Shown here piece after piece: positions 1,239 to 21,443 of a stretch of 64,000 nucleotides of DNA. Positions within the stretch are counted from its first letter, which is position 1. Each line of letters opens with the position of its first letter. Origin of the DNA: Escherichia coli (GTDB lineage Bacteria > Pseudomonadota > Gammaproteobacteria > Enterobacterales > Enterobacteriaceae); NCBI RefSeq assembly GCF_003019035.1, contig NZ_CP027447.1; one strand, 5' to 3'. The position numbers were made by a program, and so were the translations under genes. The notes beneath the pieces were generated by a model. That model made no database searches. It was not told where the DNA came from and saw only the letters and a program-made list of their open reading frames with translations.

Positions 1239-2879
1239 ATGGCTATCCACAACCGTGCAGGCCAACCTGCACAACAGAGTGATTTGATTAACGTCGCCCA
1301 ACTGACGGCGCAATATTATGTACTGAAACCAGAAGCAGGGAATGCGGAGCACGCGGTGAAATTCGGTACTTCCGGTCACCGTGGCAGTGCAGCGCGCCAC
1401 AGCTTTAACGAGCCGCATATTCTGGCGATCGCTCAGGCAATTGCTGAAGAACGTGCGAAAAACGGCATCACTGGCCCTTGCTATGTGGGTAAAGATACTC
1501 ACGCCCTGTCCGAACCTGCGTTCATTTCCGTTCTGGAAGTGCTGGCAGCGAACGGCGTTGATGTTATTGTGCAGGAAAACAATGGCTTCACTCCGACGCC
1601 TGCCGTTTCCAATGCCATCCTGGTTCACAATAAAAAAGGTGGCCCACTGGCAGACGGTATCGTGATTACACCGTCCCATAACCCGCCGGAAGATGGTGGT
1701 ATCAAGTACAATCCGCCAAATGGTGGCCCGGCTGATACCAACGTCACTAAAGTGGTGGAAGATCGTGCCAACGCACTGCTGGCCGATGGCCTGAAAGGCG
1801 TGAAGCGTATCTCCCTCGACGAAGCGATGGCATCCGGTCATGTGAAAGAGCAGGATCTGGTGCAGCCGTTTGTGGAAGGTCTGGCCGATATCGTTGATAT
1901 GGCGGCGATTCAGAAAGCGGGCCTGACGCTGGGCGTTGATCCGCTGGGCGGTTCCGGTATCGAATACTGGAAGCGTATTGGCGAGTATTACAACCTTAAC
2001 CTGACCATCGTTAACGATCAGGTCGATCAAACCTTCCGCTTTATGCACCTCGATAAAGACGGCGCGATCCGTATGGACTGCTCCTCCGAGTGTGCGATGG
2101 CGGGTCTGCTGGCACTGCGTGATAAGTTCGATCTGGCGTTTGCTAACGACCCGGATTATGACCGTCACGGTATCGTCACTCCGGCAGGTTTGATGAATCC
2201 GAACCACTACCTGGCGGTGGCGATCAATTACCTGTTCCAGCATCGTCCGCAGTGGGGCAAAGATGTTGCCGTTGGTAAAACGCTGGTTTCTTCTGCGATG
2301 ATCGACCGTGTGGTCAATGATTTGGGCCGCAGGCTGGTGGAAGTGCCGGTAGGCTTCAAATGGTTTGTTGATGGCCTGTTCGACGGCAGCTTCGGCTTTG
2401 GCGGCGAAGAGAGCGCAGGGGCTTCCTTCCTGCGTTTCGACGGCACGCCGTGGTCCACCGATAAAGACGGCATCATTATGTGTCTGCTGGCGGCGGAAAT
2501 CACCGCTGTCACCGGTAAGAATCCGCAGGAACACTACAACGAACTGGCAAAACGCTTTGGTGCGCCGAGCTACAACCGTTTGCAGGCAGCTGCGACTTCC
2601 GCACAAAAAGCGGCGCTGTCTAAGCTGTCTCCGGAAATGGTGAGCGCCAGCACCCTGGCTGGTGACCCGATCACCGCGCGCCTGACGGCAGCACCGGGCA
2701 ACGGTGCTTCTATTGGCGGTCTGAAAGTGATGACTGACAACGGCTGGTTCGCCGCGCGTCCGTCAGGCACAGAAGACGCATACAAAATCTACTGCGAAAG
2801 CTTCCTTGGTGAAGAACATCGCAAGCAGATTGAGAAAGAAGCGGTTGAGATTGTTAGCGAAGTTCTGAAAAACGCGTAA
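1239..2879 (+). CDS. pgm: Phosphoglucomutase (546 aa)
   Basis: ORF 1188..2879; start at MAIHNRAGQ; phosphohexomutase motifs (TSGHRG, GGEESAG); length matches Pgm. Confidence 0.95.
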
Positions 2880-2896
2880 ACACATTTAATAAGAAA

Positions 2897-2926
2897 AAGG
2901 GCGGTCAGAAGATCGCCCTTTTTTAC
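2897..2926 (+). terminator. Rho-independent terminator downstream of pgm
   Basis: GC-rich hairpin aagggcggtcagaagatcgccctt followed by T-run. Confidence 0.75.
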
Positions 2927-2934
2927 TTATGACT

Positions 2935-3033
2935 GCCTGATGCGCTACGCTTATCAGGCTTGGGAAGATGGTGCAATGTATTGAATTTGCTCTATTTTGT
3001 AGGCCGGATAAGGCGTTCACGCCGCATCCGGCA
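2935..3033. repeat. REP/BIME element (two REP palindromes)
   Basis: gcctgatgcgctacgcttatcaggc and aggccggataaggcgttcacgccgcatccggca match the E. coli REP consensus. Confidence 0.8.
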
Positions 3034-8727: not shown

Positions 8728-9405
8728 TCAAAGCATAAACCGATACCCAATACCGGTTTCAGTAATGAAATGGCGGGGGCGAGCGGGATCCTGTTCCAGT
8801 TTTTGTCGCAGATGTCCCATATAAATACGCAAATAATGGCTGTGTTCGACCGCGTTTGGCCCCCACACCTGGTTAAGGAGCTGGCGCTGGGTGAGCACTT
8901 TTCCGGCATTGTTGAGCAGCACCGCCAGCAGGCGAAACTCAATCGGGGTGAGATGCACCTCTTCCTCACCGCGATGGATCACGCGGGCGGCTAAATCGAC
9001 GGTCACATCGGAAAATTTCACCAGCGGATCGGGCGCGGTGGTGGCGGAGTGGCGGCGTAAAGCGACGCGCAGACGGGCCTGCAATTCGCCAATGCCAAAC
9101 GGCTTACTCAGGTAATCATCCGCTCCGGCATCCAGCGCGGCGATTTTGTCGCTCTCTTCGCTGCGTGCGGAAAGCACAATCACCGGCACCGCGCTCCACT
9201 GGCGCAGGTCGCGGATAAACTCAATCCCATCACCATCGGGCAGGCCGAGATCGAGAATAATCAAATCTGGCTTACGGGTTGCCGCTTCCAGCAAGCCGCG
9301 TTGCAGCGTTTCGGCCTCAAAGACGCGCATCCCGTCGCCCTCCAGCGCCGTGCGCAGAAAGCGACGAATAGCCTGTTCATCTTCAACAATCAGAACGTTT
9401 GTCAC
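8728..9405 (-). CDS. kdpE: Response regulator KdpE (225 aa)
   Basis: [23 protein letters not shown] receiver domain plus winged-helix C-terminus; overlaps kdpD stop. Confidence 0.95.
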   Translation of the reverse strand: MTNVLIVEDEQAIRRFLRTALEGDGMRVFEAETLQRGLLEAATRKPDLIILDLGLPDGDGIEFIRDLRQWSAVPVIVLSARSEESDKIAALDAGADDYLSKPFGIGELQARLRVALRRHSATTAPDPLVKFSDVTVDLAARVIHRGEEEVHLTPIEFRLLAVLLNNAGKVLTQRQLLNQVWGPNAVEHSHYLRIYMGHLRQKLEQDPARPRHFITETGIGYRFML

Positions 9406-12086
9406 ATATCCTCATGAAATTCTTCAAGTTCAGGGGCTATTTGCTGGGGAAGTGTAACACGAAAACAGGCACCACCTTCCGGTCGGTTGAATGCGGTAAT
9501 GGTGCCGCCGTGTACATCCACAATCGCCCGACAAATTGCCAGCCCAAGCCCGACGCCCGGCACTGCCGACTCTTTATTCCCGCGGGCAAACTTATCGAAT
9601 ATCGTCTGCTCCTGGCCTGGCGGAAGACCGGGGCCGTTATCCCAGACATCCAGTTGTAGATTTTCGCCCTCAACGTGGGCATCGATACCAATTTCGGCCT
9701 GCGCACCCGCGTATTTCACCGCGTTCTCCAGCAGATTAATCAGCACCCGTTCAAAGAGTGGCCCGTCAACGTGGATTAAGGTCAGCGGCTCTGGCAGAGA
9801 AAGATTGATGGGCGACGATAAACCCGGTTCCAGCATTTGCAGCGCGCTGCCGACCACTTCTTCCAGCGTTAACCACTCTTTCTTCAAATTAAAGCCGCCG
9901 GACTGAATTCGCGCCATATCCAGTAGATTATTCACCAGTCGGGTCGTGTTCAGCACATGCTGGCGAATCTCGCTGGCCTGGCGGGCGTGGGGCGATCCTT
10001 CGCTTGCCAGATCGAGCGTTAAGATTTCTGCCTGACCGAACAGCACCGTAAGCGGCGTGCGTAAATCATGCGAAAGTGCCGCCAGCAGGGCATTGCGGAT
10101 CTGTTCTCGTTCGCTTGCCATCCGCGCCTGTTCTTCGCTGGCGGTCAGCGTCAGCCGCTCAAGGGCATTGGCGACTAACAGCGTAAACGTCTCCAGCAGG
10201 CGCTGCTGTTCCGGGATCATCAATTGACGCAGATTCCCCGGTTCCACCACCACCAGTCCGTAGGTTTTCTCGCCGCTTTTTAGCGGCAAAATCTGGTACG
10301 GTACACCGGGTAACGTGTCGGTGCCCGCGCCCGCAGGCAGGCCTTTATCAAAACTCCACTGCGCGATGGCATCGTCCCACGGCGTCATTCCTTGCGGATG
10401 TGTTAACGGCTGCAATTTACCGTTGTCATCGGGTAACAGCACCTGACTGCGGGCATGAAACGTGGAGGCAATAAATTGTTCGCTGGTGGCGGCGATGTCC
10501 TGCGGACTGCGGCCCACAGCCAGAGCTTTCGACATTTCATATAAGTGCCGTGTGCGTTGCTCGCGGTAACGGGCTACCCGCGCCTGATAACGCACGCCAG
10601 CAGTAAGGTTCCCGATCACCAGCCCGACGGTTAACATCACCGCGAAGGTCAGCAGATATTGCACATCAGAGACGGCGAGCGTGCCGCGTGGGGCGATAAA
10701 AAAGAGATCGAAACTCACTACATTAATGACGGTGGCGACCACCGAAGGCCAGCGTCCATAAAATAGCGCCACCACCACCACGCCAAGCAGATACAGCATC
10801 ACCAGGTTGGCGGCATCAAACGCCATCAGCCACTGCATGGCAATTAAGGTGATAACGGCGCATAACGCGGCGGCAACCACGCATCCCTGAATCTGTACCC
10901 GCCACTTGTCTTTAAAAGAGCGGCTATCCGGCGCGTTGTTAATCGTGCGGGCGGGTGGGTCATCAAGCGCGACCAGCACCTGATCGAGATCGGGGGCGAT
11001 ACGCGCCAGTCGGTCAGCAAACGTTTCCCGACGCCACCAGCGGCGCGAGGCCGGGCGACCGAGAATAATCTTGCCGAGATTATGTTCACGGGCATAACGC
11101 ACTACCGCTTTCTCTTCCGCTGGATCAGAAAGTGTTGCCGTCTCCGCGCCCAGCTCCTGCGCCAGACGTAAGGCGCTGAGAATTGCCCGACGTTTTTTCT
11201 CCGGTAAGCGATGCAGGGCAGGGGTTTCAACATACACCGCGTGCCAGACACTGCCCAGGCGCGAGGCCAACCGCGCCGCCGCGCGGACCAGTTTCTCACT
11301 GCCGGTGTTATGCCCGATGCATAAAAGGATCGCGTCGCGCGTGTGCCAGACTTTCTCTTCGCCAGGATGCCCCCGCCAGGCGCGCATTTGCTCATCTACG
11401 CGATCGGCAGTACGGCGCAGTGCCAGTTCGCGCAGGGCGATCAGATTGCCTTTGCGAAAAAAATGTTCAATGGCGCGCTCCGCCTGCCCGGCAATATAGA
11501 CTTTGCCTTCTTTCAGCCGCTGGCGCAGATCGTCCGGGGGCAAGTCCACCAGTACTACGTCGTCGGCGGCATCAAAAAAAGGATCGGGCACGGTCTCCCG
11601 TACCTGAATTCCGGTGACGCCGCTGACCACATCATTCAGACTTTCCAGATGCTGAACGTTAACGGTAGTGAAAACATCAATGCCAGCTTCCAGCAGCTCC
11701 TCAATGTCCTGCCAGCGTTTGGGATGACGAGAACCTGGCGCATTACTGTGCGCCAGTTCGTCCATTAAGATCAGTGCCGGACGGCGGGCGAGGGCGGCAT
11801 CGAGATCAAACTCGCTGATGTGCCGCCCACGGTACGCCTGGCGTTTTAACGGCAGAACAGCCAGCCCTTCCAGCATTGCGGCGGTATCTTTCCGCCCGTG
11901 GGTTTCTACCACGCCAACCACAATATCCAGCCCTTGCGCCCGCAGTCGCTGGGCTTCCGCCAGCATCGCCCAGGTCTTCCCGACGCCTGCGCAGGCACCG
12001 AAGAAAACTTTCAGCTTCCCCCGATGCGGCGCGGCAGTTTGTTCCAGCAGACGATCGGGGTCGGGACGTAAGGGTTCGTTATTCAT
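9402..12086 (-). CDS. kdpD: Sensor histidine kinase KdpD (894 aa)
   Basis: ORF 9402..12119 with start at [16 protein letters not shown]; KdpD N-terminal domain, Usp domain, 4 TM, HisKA/HATPase. Confidence 0.95.
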
Positions 12087-12651
12087 CAAGCTTATCCAGC
12101 GCCAGATTGAGTTCGACAATGTTGACGACCGGCTGGCCGATATAGTTCACCAGCGGTTGTTGGCTGTATTTTGCGATCAGTTGCGTGAGCTGTTCAACGC
12201 TGAGATTACGCGCTTTCGCCACGCGTGGGATCTGCCAGGCCGCCGCTTGCGGGGTGATGTTATTGTCCAGCCCGCTTGCCGACGCCGTCACCAGTTCAAC
12301 CGGAACGCTCGTGCTGGCGTCCGGGTTAGCGGCCCGTAATGCGGCAACGCGTGCGGCTATCTGTTTATCCAGCTCCGGGTTACTGACTGCCAGATTGCTC
12401 CCGCCAGAAGCCTGTGGATTATAGGGCATTTCTGCTGTTGCCGACGGGCGACCATGAAAATAGCCGTTGCCGGTAAAATTTTGCCCGATTAATGCCGAAC
12501 CGCGCACCGTATCACCTTCACGAATCAATGAACCGTTGGCCTGCCAGGGAAACCACCATTGCCCCAGTGCGGTGGTCAGCAGCGGGTAAACGCCGCCAGT
12601 AATCAATAACAGAAAGAGAAATGTCGATAATGCCGGACGTAATCCACTCAT
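12079..12651 (-). CDS. kdpC: K+-transporting ATPase subunit KdpC (190 aa)
   Basis: Start [27 protein letters not shown]; operon position. Confidence 0.95.
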
Positions 12652-12659
12652 GGTAAACC

Positions 12660-14708
12660 TCACACCAGACCGCAAACGGTTAGCAGTAAATCAATGACTT
12701 TGATACCAATAAACGGCACCAGCAGCCCACCCAGACCGTAAATCCATAAGTTACGGCGCAACATGGCAGAAGCGGTAAGCGGTTTATAACTCACGCCTTT
12801 TAACGCCAGGGGAATCAAAAAGACGATAATCAAGGCGTTGAAAATCACCGCACTGAGAATGGCGGAGTCGGGCGAATGCAGGCGCATGATGTTCAGCGCA
12901 TTTAACTGCGGATACGTTGCCGCGAACGCCGCCGGAATAATGGCGAAGTATTTCGCCACATCGTTGGCAATGCTGAAGGTGGTCAGCGAGCCACGGGTCA
13001 TCAGCATCTGTTTGCCAATATGTACCACCTCGATCAACTTGGTCGGGTTGGAGTCGAGATCCACCATATTGCCCGCTTCTTTCGCCGCCTGAGTACCAGA
13101 GTTCATCGCCACCGCGACATCTGCCTGCGCCAGCGCCGGAGCATCGTTGGTGCCGTCGCCGGTCATCGCCACCAAACGGCCTTCCGCCTGATACTGACGA
13201 ATCAATGCCAGCTTGGCCTCCGGTGTCGCTTCGGCGAGAAAATCATCGACACCCGCTTCCGCAGCTATCGCGGCGGCAGTCAGACGGTTATCACCGGTAA
13301 TCATCACCGTTTTAATGCCCATTTTACGCAGCTGGGCGAAGCGCTCTTTAATACCGCCTTTGACGATATCTTTCAGCGCAATAACGCCCAGCACACGAGA
13401 ACCTTCCACCACCACCAGCGGCGTAGCTCCCTGACGCGCAACCTGATCGACTTTTTGATCAACATCGGCAGGGAAGTGACCACCGTTAGCCTCAACATGG
13501 CGGCGAATGGCATCGACAGAACCTTTACGGATCATGCGGTTGTCGATGTTGATCCCGCTCATCCGGCTTTGCGCAGTAAACGGTACAAAGGTGGCGTGAA
13601 GCGACTGCACATCGCGCTCACGCAGGTTAAAACGCTGCTTGGCGAGGATCACAATACTGCGGCCTTCCGGCGTTTCATCAGCCAGCGAAGCCAGTTGTGC
13701 GGCGTCAGCCAGCGTTTTTTCATCCACGCCCTGCGCAGGGATAAACTCCGACGCCTGACGGTTACCAAGTGTGATGGTGCCGGTTTTATCCAGTAGCAGA
13801 ACGTCAACGTCACCTGCCGCTTCAACTGCACGTCCGCTGGTGGCAATCACATTCGCGCCCAGCATCCGACTCATCCCGGCGACGCCAATCGCTGACAACA
13901 GGCCGCCAATAGTGGTTGGGATCAGACAGACCAGCAGCGCCACCAGTACCGTTACACTCACTGCATTACCGCCCCACGCGGAAAACGGCCATAGCGTGGC
14001 GGTTGCCAGTAAAAAGACGATAGTCAGGGCAATCAGGAGAATGGTCAGGGCAATCTCGTTCGGCGTTTTGCGTCGCTGTGCGCCTTCCACCATTGCGATC
14101 ATCCGATCCAGAAATGTCTCGCCGGGGTTAACGCTGCACTCAATCACCAGCCAGTCAGAAAGAATACGCGTGCCGCCAGTGACGGAGGCAAAATCGCCGC
14201 CGGATTCACGGATCACCGGTGCCGATTCCCCGGTGATGGCGCTTTCATCGACCGATGCGCCCCCTTCAATGACTTCACCATCGCAGGGGATAATATCGCC
14301 AGCTTCTACCAGCACGATGTCACCTTTACGCAGTTGAACGGCAGGAACTTTGTCCGCCGCAGCGCCATATTTCGGCTCACGCAGCTTGCGGGCAAAGGCA
14401 GTTTTTTTCACCCCTTTCAGACTGTTGGCCTGCGCTTTACTGCGGCCTTCTGCCAGCGCCTCGGCGAAATTAGCGAACAGTACGGTGACCCACAGCCAGC
14501 CGCTAATTGCCGCGCTAAACAGCGCATTGCCAGGCATCGCCCCGCTTGCCATCGCGATGCTAATACAGGTGGTCAGCAGACTGCCGATCCAGACGATAAA
14601 CATCACCGGATTGCGCCATTGCGCCTGCGGGTTTAATTTTTTCACCGCTTCTTTCAGCGCCTGAACGACAAGTGTTGGTTCGAATAGCGCCAGTTGTTTA
14701 CGACTCAT
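12660..14708 (-). CDS. kdpB: K+-transporting P-type ATPase subunit KdpB (682 aa)
   Basis: P-type ATPase motifs (DKTGT, TGDN, GDGTND). Confidence 0.95.
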
Positions 14709-14730
14709 ATTCAGTGCTCACTCAATATCA

Positions 14731-16404
14731 TCAGGAGAGATATTCCGCCACCGGACCAAGCGCCAGGGCAGGGATAAAGGTCAGTGCGCCAACCAGCAAC
14801 ACGGTGCCGATTAACAGGCCAACAAACAGCGGGCCGTGCGTTGGCAATGTGCCGGAGCTGGCGGGTTGGCTCTTTTTACTCACCAGCGAACCGGCAATTG
14901 CCATCACCGGGATAATCACCCCGAAGCGCCCGACAAACATGCACAACGCCAGTAAACAGTTCCAGAATGGAGAGTTGGCGCTTAATCCGGCAAAGGCGCT
15001 GCCGTTGTTGTTAGCGGCGGATGACACGGCGTACAGCACTTCGCTAAAACCATGCGGGCCAGGGTTGAGCATGGCGCTACGTCCGGCGTCGGTCATCATT
15101 GCCAGCGCCGCGCCCATCAGCACCAGCGTCGGGGTGACCAGAATCGCCAGTGCAGTCAGTTTCATCTCGCGTACGTCGATTTTTTTACCCAGATATTCCG
15201 GTGTACGACCAATCATCAGCCCGGCAATAAACACCGCCAGCAGGACAAACAGCATCATGCCGTAAAGGCCGGAACCGACGCCGCCGAATACCACTTCACC
15301 AATTTGCATCAACCACATCGGCACCATGCCACCAAGAGCGGTAAACGAATCATGCATCGCAATCACCGCGCCGCAGGAAGCCGCCGTAGTCACGACCGCA
15401 AACAGGCTACTGACCAGCACGCCGAAACGGCTCTCTTTACCTTCCATATTGATGCTGCTGTCCGCGCCGAGCGCCAGCAGATGAGGATTACCCTGAACTT
15501 CTGCCCACATCACTACGCCTACGCAGATGACAAAAATCACCGACATCGCCCACAGCAACATGCGCCCCTGGCGACGATCGCCCGCCACTTCACCAAAGGC
15601 AAAGCACAGCGCTGTTGGGATCAAGAAAATCGCCAGCATTTGCACGAAGTTGGTCAGTGCGGTTGGGTTTTCAAACGGATGCGACGAGTTGGCATTAAAG
15701 AAGCCACCGCCGTTAGTACCGAGCATCTTGATCGCTTCCTGAGAAGCTACTGGCCCCATTGGTAACAGCTGTTGCGCTCCTTCAATGGTCGTCACAGCCT
15801 GATAAGGCTGAAAGTTTTGCAGTGCACCTTGTTGAATAAAAAACAGTGCGATCAACAATGCCACAGGGGCTAACACCCATAACGTGATGCGTAGCAGATC
15901 GACCCAGGCATTACCGAGCGTGCTCATGCTCTGGCGGGTAAACGCACGGATGAGGGCAAAAATCACCGCAATCCCGCTGGCGGCAGAAAGAAAGTTTTGC
16001 ACCGTTAAGCCCGCCATCTGGCTGAAATAGCTCAACGTGGTTTCACCGCTATAAGATTGCCAGTTGGTATTCGTGACAAAGCTGACGGCGGTATTGAGCG
16101 CCAGATCCCACGACAGCCCCGGCAACTGCTGTGGATTAAGCGGCAAATAGTGCTGACCGAGCAACATAAAAAACAGCACCGCCAGCCCCAGCATATTCAG
16201 GCCAAGAATGGCTGAGAGATACTGCTTCCAGTTCATCTCGCGGTCAGAGACGCCAAGCGCGCTAAAGAGTACGCGTTCAACGCCCGTCGTACCAGGAAGA
16301 GGAATATCATTAATCAGCCGCGCCAGCCCGCTGCCTAAAGGACGTGCCAGCACCATTAACACCAGTAAAAACGTGGCGATCAGTAAGAACCCTTGCGCAG
16401 CCAT
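14731..16404 (-). CDS. kdpA: K+-transporting ATPase subunit KdpA (557 aa)
   Basis: ORF 14731..16536 with start at [24 protein letters not shown]. Confidence 0.95.
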
Positions 16405-16481
16405 CAGAACGCCTCCGCATTGATCAGGGCATAAACCAGATAACCCAGTAATAAAAACACCAGCAACACGCCTGCACTCAC
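16404..16481 (-). CDS. kdpF: KdpF small subunit, apparently GTG-initiated (25 codons)
   Basis: Small hydrophobic ORF ending [20 protein letters not shown] overlapping kdpA start; GGAGG 6 nt upstream of GTG. Confidence 0.7.
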
Positions 16482-16793
16482 AGTGCACCTCCAGTGGCCG
16501 AAAAGTGATATCGGAAGGGTAGAATTCTGGCTGCAAAGATTTCGCAAAAATCTGCGGGCGGGGTGTAAAAAAAGTATAAAAATGGCAAAAGCCATGATTT
16601 AACTGATGGTTAGTATTAATTTAACTTTTGTGTAACTTAATTACAGTGTGAATGTAAATAAACCATCAATAAGCAAAAATAAGTGGTCGGATGAGTAGTA
16701 AAATTACACAAAAGGCGGTACTATTTTCATCAGATAAACAAATTCATTTTTCCGGTGCCATTCACCGGGTAGATACAACAGGGGGAGAAAAGT

Positions 16794-17000
16794 ATGGAAC
16801 TTTACAGAGAATATCCTGCATGGCTTATCTTTTTACGCCGTACTTATGCGGTTGCAGCGGGCGTTCTGGCGCTGCCTTTCATGCTTTTCTGGAAAGACCG
16901 CGCCCGCTTTTACAGCTACCTGCACCGCGTCTGGTCGAAAACCAGCGAGAAACCGGTGTGGATGGATCAGGCCGAAAAGGCAACTGGTGATTTTTACTGA
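16794..17000 (+). CDS. ybfA: Small protein YbfA (68 aa)
   Basis: [68 protein letters not shown]; divergent from kdp promoter. Confidence 0.85.
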
Positions 17001-17021
17001 TTGCTGAGTTCTGAATACATT

Positions 17022-17243: not shown

Positions 17244-20200
17244 ATGAGCGGAAAACCGGCGGCGCGTCAGGGCGACATGACGCAGTATGGCGGTAGCATT
17301 GTTCAGGGTTCAGCCGGGGTACGTATTGGTGCTCCCACCGGCGTGGCCTGTTCGGTGTGCCCCGGCGGGGTGACGTCCGGCCATCCGGTCAATCCGCTGC
17401 TCGGTGCGAAGGTCCTTCCCGGCGAAACCGACCTTGCCCTGCCCGGCCCGCTGCCGTTCATCCTCTCCCGCACCTACAGCAGTTACCGGACAAAAACGCC
17501 CGCGCCGGTGGGGAGCCTCGGCCCCGGCTGGAAAATGCCCGCGGATATCCGCTTACAGCTGCGCGATAACACACTGATACTCAGTGATAACGGCGGCAGG
17601 AGCCTGTATTTTGAGCACCTGTTTCCCGGTGAGGACGGTTACAGCCGCAGCGAGTCACTCTGGCTGGTGCGCGGCGGCGTGGCGAAACTGGATGAAGGTC
17701 ACCGGCTGGCCGCACTCTGGCAGGCGCTGCCGGAAGAGCTTCGCCTGAGTCCGCATCGTTATCTGGCGACGAACAGTCCGCAGGGGCCGTGGTGGGTACT
17801 CGGCTGGTGTGAGCAGGTGCCGGAGGCGGATGAGGTGCTGCCCGCGCCGCTGCCGCCGTACCGGGTACTGACCGGGCTGGTGGACCGCTTCGGGCGCACA
17901 CAGACGTTTCACCGTGAGGCTGGCGGTGAATTCAGCGGCGAAATCACCGGCGTGACGGATGGTGCCGGGCGTCACTTCCGGCTGGTACTGACCACGCAGG
18001 CGCTGCGGGCAGAAGAGGCCCGGCAGCAGGCCATTTCCGGCGGGACGGAACCGTCCGCTTTTCCTGATACCCTGCCGGACTACACGGAATATGGCCGGGA
18101 CAACGGCATCCGCCTGTCCGCCGTGTGGCTGACGCACGACCCGGAATATCCGGACAACCTGCCAGCCGCGCCGCTGGTACGCTATGGCTGGACGCCACGC
18201 GGCGAACTGGCGGCGGTGTATGACCGCAGCGGCACACAGGTGCGCAGCTTTACTTACGATGATAAATACCGGGGCCGGATGGTGGCGCACCGTCACACGG
18301 GCCGGCCGGAAATCCGTTACCGTTACGACAGCGACGGGCGGGTGACAGAACAGCTAAACCCGGCAGGCTTAAGCTACACGTATCAGTATGAGAAAGACCG
18401 CATCACCATCACCGACAGCCTGGACCGCCGTGAAGTCCTGCACACGCAGGGCGAAGGCGGGCTGAAGCGGGTGGTGAAAAAGGAACACGCGGACGGCAGC
18501 GTCACGCAGAGTCAGTTTGACGCGGTGGGCAGGCTTAAGGCACAGACGGATGCCGCAGGCCGGACGACTGAGTACAGCCCGGATGTGGTGACGGGACTCA
18601 TCACGCGCATCACCACGCCGGATGGCAGGGCATCGGCGTTTTACTATAACCACCACAGCCAGTTAACGTCAGCCACCTGGCCTGACGGGCTGGAAATACG
18701 CCGGGAATATGATGAATCCGGCCGTCTGATTCAGGAAACCGCCCCTGACGGCGATATCACCCGCTACCGTTATGATAATCCACACAGTGACTTCCCCTGC
18801 GCAACGGAGGATGCCACCGGCAGCCGGAAAACCATGACGTGGAGCCGTTACGGTCAGTTGCTGACCTTCACCGACTGTTCCGGCTACCAGACCCGTTATG
18901 ACCATGACCGCTTCGGGCAGATGACGGCGGTGCACCGCGAGGAAGGCCTGAGCCAGTGCCGCGCATACGACAGCCGTGGACAGTTAATTGCGGTGAAAGA
19001 CACGCAGGGCCATGAAACGCGGTATGAATACAACGCCGCCGGTGACCTGACCGCCGTCATTGCCCCGGACGGCAGCAGAAACGGGGCACAGTACGATGCG
19101 TGGGGAAAGGCCGTCCGTACCACGCAGGGCGGGCTGACCCGCAGTATGGAATACGATGCTGCAGGACGGGTCATCCGCCTGACAAACGAAAACGGCAGCC
19201 ACACCACCTTCCGTTACGATGTACTCGACCGGCTGATACAGGAAACCGGCTTTGACGGCCGCACACAGCGTTACCACCACGACCTGACCGGCAAACTTAT
19301 CCGCAGCGAGGATGAGGGGCTGGTCACCCACTGGCACTATGACGAAGCAGACCGCCTCACGCAGCGCACCGTGAATGGCGAAACCGCAGAGCGGTGGCAG
19401 TATGACGAACGCGGCTGGCTGACAGGCATCAGCCATCTCAGCGAAGGGCACCGGGTGACGGTGCATTACAGGTATGATGAGAAAGGCCGCCTGACCGGTG
19501 AGCGCCAGACGGTGCATCACCCGCAGACGGAAGCACTGCTCTGGCAGCATGAAACCAGACATGCGTACAATGCGCAGGGGCTGGCGAACCGCTGTATACC
19601 GGACAGCCTGCCCGCCGTGGAATGGCTGACTTATGGCAGTGGTTACCTGGCAGGGATGAAGCTGGGTGACTCGCCCCTGGTGGAGTACACCCGCGACCGC
19701 CTGCACCGGGAAACGCTGCGCAGCTTCGGCCGTTATGAACTCACCACCGCTTATACCCCTGCCGGGCAGTTACAGAGCCAGCACCTGAACAGCCTGCAGT
19801 ATGACCGCGATTACACCTGGAACGACAACGGCGAACTCATTCGCATCAGCAGCCCGCGCCAGACCCGGAGTTACAGCTACAGCGACTCCGGCAGGCTGAC
19901 CGGCGTTCACACCACCGCAGCGAACCTGGATATCCGCATCCCGTATGCCACGGACCCGGCAGGTAACCGCCTGCCCGACCCGGAGCTGCACCCGGACAGC
20001 ACCCTCAGCATGTGGCCGGATAACCGTATCGCCCGTGACGCGCACTATCTTTACCGGTATGACCGTCACGGCAGGCTGACGGAGAAAACCGACCTCATCC
20101 CGGAAGGGGTTATCCGCACGGATGATGAGCGGACTCACCGGTACCATTACGACAGCCGGCACCGGCTGGTGCACTACACGCGGACACAATATGCAGAGCC

Positions 20201-21443
20201 GCTGGTCGAAAGTCGCTATCTTTACGACCCGCTGGGCCGCAGGGTGGCAAAACGGGTGTGGCGGCGTGAACGGGACCTGACGGGCTGGATGTCGCTGTCA
20301 CGGAAACCGGAAGTGACCTGGTACGGCTGGGACGGCGACCGGCTGACCACGATACAGAACGACAGAACCCGCATCCAGACGATTTATCAGCCGGGGAGCT
20401 TCACGCCACTCATCAGGGTCGAAACTGCCACCGGTGAGCTGGCGAAAACGCAGCGCCGCAGCCTGGCGGATGCGCTTCAGCAGTCCGGCGGCGAAAACGG
20501 TGGCAGTGTGGTGTTCCCGCCGGTGCTGGTGCAGATGCTCGACCGGCTGGAAAGTGAAATCCTGGCTGACCGGGTGAGTGAGGAAAGCCGCCGCTGGCTG
20601 GCATCGTGCGGCCTGACGGTGGCGCAGATGCAAAACCAGATGGACCCGGTGTACACACCGGCGCGAAAAATCCACCTGTACCACTGCGACCATCGCGGCC
20701 TGCCGCTGGCGCTTGTCAGCACGGAAGGGGCAACAGAATGGTGCGCAGAATACGATGAGTGGGGCAACCTGCTGAATGAAGAGAACCCGCACCAGCTGCA
20801 GCAGCTCATCCGCCTGCCGGGTCAGCAGTATGATGAGGAGTCCGGCCTGTATTACAACCGCCACCGCTATTATGACCCGCTGCAGGGGCGGTATATCACT
20901 CAGGATCCTATTGGGCTGAAGGGGGGATGGAATTTTTATCAGTATCCGTTGAATCCGGTTCAGTATATAGATTCAATGGGACTGGCATCAAAATATGGAC
21001 ACTTAAATAATGGCGGATATGGAGCGAGACCCAACAAACCGCCTACGCCCGATCCAAGTAAATTGCCAGACATAGCGAAACAATTAAGACTGCCATATCC
21101 TATTGACCAGGCCAGTAGTGCGCCTAATGTTTTCAAAACATTCTTCAGAGCATTAAGCCCTTACGACTACACACTGTATTGCAGGAAGTGGGTAAAACCA
21201 AATCTGACTTGTACGCCACAGGATGATCCCCAGTATCCAGGGATGGATACAAAGACAGCAAGTGATTACCTGCCACAGACAAATTGGCCAACAACTCAAT
21301 TACCACCAGGATATACTTGTGCAGAACCCTATTTATTCCCAGACATTAATAAACCCGATGGGCCAGCAACAGCAGGGATAGATGATTTGGGTGAAATTTT
21401 AGCTAAAATGAAACAGAGAACATCGAGAGGAATAAGAAAATGA
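17244..21443 (+). CDS. rhsC: Rhs family protein RhsC (1399 aa): N-terminal PAAR-like region, YD-repeat core, PxxxxDPxGL cleavage motif, variable C-terminal toxin tip
   Basis: Repeated YD motifs (YRYDxxGRL), conserved core ending ...[17 protein letters not shown], then about 170 aa Cys/Pro-rich tip; upstream context ybfA as for rhsC. Confidence 0.9.

Follow-up and report, generated by a model that had tools for sequence, protein, structure and literature searches.

Organization of the kdpFABC locus

The DNA analysed here, referred to as the window, is a stretch of 64,000 nucleotides from Escherichia coli. It carries the kdpFABC operon and the genes of its regulators on the minus strand, with the following features listed in the direction of transcription.

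16488–16492, minus strand: Shine-Dalgarno sequence of kdpF, GGAGG, with a 6-nt spacer to the GTG
16479–16481, minus strand: start codon of kdpF, GTG, the same as in MG1655 b4513
16404–16481, minus strand: coding sequence of kdpF, short allele, consisting of GTG, 24 further codons and TGA (RefSeq WP_096986906.1)
16412–16416, minus strand: second GGAGG, within the 3' end of kdpF, 7 nt 5' of the kdpA ATG
16406–16404, minus strand: stop codon of kdpF, TGA, whose A is shared with the kdpA ATG (16404–16402) in a 1-nt overlap
14731–16404, minus strand: kdpA, 557 aa, intact, its ATG overlapping the kdpF stop
12660–14708, minus strand: kdpB, 682 aa, intact
12079–12651, minus strand: kdpC, 190 aa, intact
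8728–12086, minus strand: kdpD (894 aa) and kdpE (225 aa), the regulators of the operon, intact

The region of kdpF reads, 5' to 3' on the minus strand, ...cactGGAGGtgcactGTGAGTGCAGGCGTGTTGCTG...GAGGCGTTCTGATGGCT. Translation from 16481 to 16404 gives a product of 25 residues that starts with V(M), in agreement with an earlier note on this DNA that had described a gene of 25 codons with a GTG start after GGAGG. The MG1655 gene (b4513, 728732–728821) has the same GTG and GGAGG and contains 29 codons, the length that the note had given for K-12. Since MG1655 is annotated with this GTG start as well, the window is distinguished by the deletion alone, described below. The GGAGG of kdpF is invariant across all E. 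coli sequences aligned, and no further ATG, GTG or TTG occurs in frame between an ATG at 16595 and the GTG. This sequence context supports the use of GTG as the probable start of kdpF in the window; a literature search for evidence on the kdpF start codon returned nothing relevant. The second GGAGG, at 16416–16412, is the ribosome-binding site of kdpA itself.

The gene in the window is the ordinary kdpF of the operon that encodes the KdpFABC potassium pump, in which it stands first and overlaps kdpA; kdpA, B, C, D and E behind it all have canonical lengths. Its flanks are collinear with and identical to those of full-length alleles, from which it differs only by a 12-bp gap. PGAP annotates the identical sequence in E. 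coli SCU-301 as kdpF with 25 codons (WP_096986906.1). RefSeq already lists this gene with its GTG start, and the identical 25-residue protein, under the correct name.

Family models recognise the short protein. It scores 28.7 bits with PF09604 (cut-off 21.2) and 31.9 with TIGR02115 (cut-off 26.85), and it passes the enterobacterial equivalog model NF011332 by only 1.3 bits (57.3 against a cut-off of 56). The PF09604 and TIGR02115 models have 24 positions; the 29-residue KdpF covers positions 1–24, whereas the window protein aligns to positions 3–24 and leaves the first two unmatched. Its mean Kyte-Doolittle hydrophobicity (1.89) is the same as that of the K-12 protein. The 25 residues conform to a single hydrophobic helix of about 25–30 residues, which would be predicted to insert into the membrane.

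A 12-bp deletion between direct repeats

In comparing kdpF of the window with that of MG1655, we found a single 12-base gap after codon 5, with no frameshift. The alignment thus bears out the earlier note, which had proposed a 12-bp in-frame deletion near the N-terminus. The same note had said that a reference kdpF with identical sequence and start would speak against its reading; the GTG start is indeed the same in MG1655, and the sequence differs by the 12-bp deletion. A literature search for a published in-frame deletion in kdpF returned nothing relevant.

KdpF of E. coli K-12 (b4513, KDPF_ECOLI, 29 aa; PDB 5MRW, 6HRA and 23 other entries) is encoded at the same locus with the same GTG, GGAGG and kdpA overlap. 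Residues 1–5 and the last 20 residues of the two proteins are identical. The window protein, with 25 residues instead of 29, lacks four that correspond to ITGV or VITG at positions 5–9 of the K-12 sequence. A closer relative is the E. coli and Shigella allele that encodes MSAGVIAGVLLVF... (WP_001365534.1), found for example in strain FDAARGOS_1285. Its promoter, 5'UTR and kdpF match the window except for the deletion, and it retains the 12 bp ATAGCCGGCGTG (equivalently GGCGTGATAGCC) that are absent from the window. The WP_001365534.1 haplotype is the immediate parent of the window allele. Compared with this parental protein, the window protein is missing VIAG, which can equally be read as IAGV (positions 5–9).

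The sequence at the junction reveals how the two alleles are related. FDAARGOS_1285 and two draft genomes with full-length kdpF, L005 and L009 (GCA_025186925.1 and GCA_024612825.1), read GCA GGC GTG ATA GCC GGC GTG TTG, and the window reads GCA GGC GTG TTG, so that exactly one 12-bp repeat period is gone. The closest full-length alleles contain a perfect 6-bp direct repeat of GGCGTG with a period of 12 bp (GGCGTG-ATAGCC-GGCGTG). In K-12 the second copy is GGCGTA, which makes the repeat imperfect. One copy of the repeat remains in the window.

16467–16472, minus strand: sole retained copy of GGCGTG, which the alignments place at the deletion junction

Where in the repeat the break occurred is ambiguous, with MAFFT placing the gap on one side or the other in different runs. 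The deletion may be the product of replication slippage, or of a related event mediated by microhomology, between the two GGCGTG repeats that lie 12 bp apart in the parental allele. A geometry of this kind is characteristic of slipped-strand mispairing between short direct repeats, which would be the mechanism here.

Predicted effect of the deletion on KdpF

KdpF, a single transmembrane helix, has a stabilising role in the complex (PMC8385062; PMC12648545). Lipid-nanodisc structures reported in a 2026 preprint place the KdpF N-terminus in the periplasm, beside the headgroup of a structural lipid designated 'lipid B', whose tails wrap KdpF and mediate contact with M3 and M4 of KdpB (PMC13042032). 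Complexes that lack KdpF have ~20% of wild-type ATPase activity in decyl-maltoside, and in proteoliposomes they recover activity and coupled transport (PMC13042032). KdpF is not essential for Kdp function in vivo according to the statement in PMC3618439 that cites Gassel et al. 1999. Stabilisation of KdpFABC in detergent is known, as Gassel 1999 is cited, only for the 29-residue form of KdpF.

At the periplasmic, N-terminal end of KdpF's only membrane helix, roughly one helical turn is lost through the deletion. The conserved C-terminal core, the overlap of the kdpF stop with the kdpA start and the ribosome-binding site of kdpA are all untouched. The 25-residue peptide would most likely still insert into the membrane and sit beside KdpA; at most, its lipid-mediated packing against KdpB might be weakened. 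Since KdpF is reported to be dispensable for transport, a neutral or mildly destabilising variant is to be expected. Any effect would presumably be limited to lipid retention or to stability in detergent.

A more severe outcome, in which the shortened peptide fails to insert or to bind KdpA, would make kdpF effectively a pseudogene and leave KdpABC working in membranes. Such inactivation is conceivable in that the uncharged span of KdpF falls from 22 residues in the full-length protein to 18 in the window, near the lower limit for a helix that crosses a bilayer. It could also be tolerated, given that the KdpF-less complex transports in proteoliposomes, that KdpF is reported to be non-essential in vivo and that kdpA, with its own GGAGG, has no strict need for translation of kdpF. 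We nevertheless regard it as unlikely. Frame, start, stop and the C-terminal core (model positions 3–24 of 24) are all kept, and the family scores exceed their cut-offs. The family models themselves comprise only 24 positions, so that a peptide of 25 residues covers nearly the whole conserved core. Moreover, eighteen hydrophobic residues, a helix of ~27 Å, should be able to span the hydrocarbon core.

Age and origin of the short allele

KdpF proteins of 29 residues are on record for E. coli, Shigella, E. fergusonii and E. whittamii. The presence of the 29-residue form in these Escherichia and Shigella taxa indicates that the 25-residue form is derived. Upstream of kdpF, FDAARGOS_1285 is identical to the window to approximately position 17010 (about 550 bp), apart from the deletion. 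Downstream, L005 and L009 have no mismatch to the window in the 1674 nt of kdpA (0/1674) and none in the first ~130 nt of kdpB. Judged by these flanks, the deletion is evidently a young, lineage-specific event. A single origin is indicated by the haplotype, which is the same in all carriers seen.

The comparison with L005 and L009 also revealed where this identity ends. Bar the deletion, the window is identical to both from the 5'UTR of kdpF to ~130 nt of kdpB (14576–16499). Divergence beyond that point is ~2–3%, with 45 mismatches in the rest of kdpB, 18 in kdpC and 8 in the 5' part of kdpD. This pattern suggests a mosaic haplotype with a recombination breakpoint near window position 14577. 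For a 24-kb segment of the window (6000–30000), the closest complete E. coli genome is SCU-301 (99.9%). The next-closest is only 97.8% identical, so either the lineage or this segment is poorly represented among the 5,426 complete RefSeq genomes.

Selection for the short allele in its lineage, by tuning of lipid binding, pump stability or a moonlighting interaction, would give the deletion an adaptive role. In keeping with this idea, the allele persists in a lineage for which there are many samples (43 contigs), the lost residues map to the periplasmic end, beside the structural 'lipid B', and mycobacterial KdpF interacts outside the pump, for example in a reported contact between KdpF and KdpD. 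We consider adaptation very improbable, however. One haplotype is found in all carriers seen, with no independent recurrence; complete genomes hardly ever carry the allele; and the lack of any substitution on its flanks marks the event as young. A single haplotype, rarity and youth are consistent with a neutral mutation that has hitch-hiked in one clone. The short allele would accordingly have been carried along in one clone, as a neutral or slightly deleterious variant.

Promoter, KdpE operator and upstream ATG

The region 5' of kdpF contains the KdpE operator and an ATG in frame with kdpF.

16564–16580, minus strand: KdpE operator half-sites TTTATA (16580–16575) and TTTACA (16569–16564), 5 bp apart
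16593–16595, minus strand: upstream in-frame ATG, which opens a 63-codon ORF through the promoter

KdpE half-sites have been placed at -72 to -50 relative to the transcription start of kdpFABC (PMC3264566). We estimate from this published footprint position that +1 lies near 16511, which would give a 5'UTR of ~30 nt. Presumably, the mapped transcription start of kdpFABC agrees with this estimate. A scan of 16380–16800 for the sigma-70 consensus, which reports close matches only, found no site.

Translation from the ATG at 16595 would yield a protein of 63 residues, which some gene callers annotate. The frame is open from 16595 to 16404, and a 63-aa gene is called in GCA_044896315.1 and GCA_030294445.1 (L007 and L010). 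That this ATG is the true start of kdpF is scarcely credible. It sits 5' of the KdpE half-sites, ~80 nt upstream of the 5' end of the mRNA, and no GGAGG-type site is seen in the bases just 5' of it. The same open frame exists in MG1655, yet KdpF chains in 25 solved structures comprise 29 or 27 residues, and PGAP calls the 25-codon gene rather than the 63-codon ORF. Lying 5' of the KdpE operator, the ATG should fall outside the kdpFABC mRNA. The earlier note had allowed for use of an upstream ATG; the only in-frame candidate is this one at 16595, 5' of the operator, and the objection falls away.

With the ATG 5' of the operator, we rejected the 63-codon calls as gene-caller artefacts. They were probably prompted by the shortness of the true gene. 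Calls of kdpF are inconsistent among three records, L006, L007 and L010, in which loci 2810–3001 correspond to window 16404–16595: two carry the 63-aa call and one carries no call. The PGAP call in SCU-301, by contrast, has 25 aa.

Two further features of this region were recorded. The 5'UTR of the window differs from that of MG1655 by two SNPs on the minus strand, a G>A at 16511, about the position of the proposed transcription start, and an A>C at 16500, 19 nt 5' of the GTG. FDAARGOS_1285 has both, so the two SNPs are part of a common allele with no linkage to the deletion. The short palindrome ATGGCTTTTGCCAT at 16582–16595 (minus strand), followed by a run of T, was flagged as terminator-like. 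It lies directly 5' of the KdpE operator, runs into it and contains the spurious ATG; the run of T belongs to the KdpE site itself.

Occurrence of the short allele among genomes

The short kdpF allele is rare: of the 5,423 complete E. coli genomes in RefSeq that gave a match, one (SCU-301) has it. With a query of 341 nt, SCU-301 gave the one match at 100% among these genomes. The other matches inspected, a subset of the 5,423, span 352–354 nt, and a partial match in H40 extends over 307 nt for 295 bases of query, likewise a surplus of 12. SCU-301 was likewise the sole single-piece match to a 70-nt query centred on the junction, in a ranking that exposes carriers with no more than one mismatch and not more divergent ones. 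The records that ranked next aligned in two pieces, with 68 query bases spread over 80 nt.

Outside the set of complete genomes, 43 contigs with several NCBI accessions are recorded as encoding exactly this 25-residue protein; for either of the two common 29-residue alleles, the count is at least 1,000 contigs. A look-up of the window's KdpA led to the deletion in four assemblies: GCA_900603765.1, GCA_044896315.1, GCA_012934695.1 (SCU-301) and GCA_030294445.1. GCA_044896315.1 is identical to the window over 7,674 nt (100%).

The finding of the deletion in four independent assemblies, together with the record of the protein from 43 contigs, excludes an artefact. The alternative, an error of sequencing or assembly in a true kdpF of 29 codons, might be suggested by SCU-301: among complete RefSeq genomes it alone was found with the gap, and its assembly does contain indel errors, as seen from five small indels against the window in 7.7 kb and a 'frameshifted' RHS gene. 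The likelihood of such an error in kdpF is negligible, given the identical deletion in four separately deposited assemblies and the window and the many contigs under separate NCBI accessions; a loss of 12 bp from non-homopolymeric sequence is also untypical of read errors.

The Rhs region itself was compared between the two genomes. On the plus strand of the window, 17244–21443 is an intact Rhs core ORF of 1,399 aa that adjoins ybfA. The corresponding gene in SCU-301 (NZ_CP051751.1, 3422429–3426625) is annotated as frameshifted, and the five small indels relative to the window fall here. These indels are probably assembly errors rather than biology.

Discussion

We conclude with considerable confidence that the window contains a normal, GTG-started kdpF with a young, slippage-type deletion of 12 bp, whose product likely inserts into the membrane and which is probably neutral or slightly deleterious. 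The overall significance of the finding is small: this is an ordinary gene with a rare natural length polymorphism. The deletion provides a clear example of loss between 6-bp direct repeats.

One practical consequence concerns annotation. Pan-genome pipelines may score kdpF as absent or variant in the lineage with the short allele, which would produce false signals of presence and absence.

The 25-residue allele could also be viewed as a natural minimal KdpF, in which the trimmed turn might alter lipid retention, stability in detergent or fitness under K+ limitation. We hold this to be improbable. If it is true, the minimal KdpF would be a ready-made probe of what the N-terminus contributes. 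As a natural truncation at the periplasmic end of KdpF, the allele is usable in work on the lipid-mediated interface between KdpF and KdpB.
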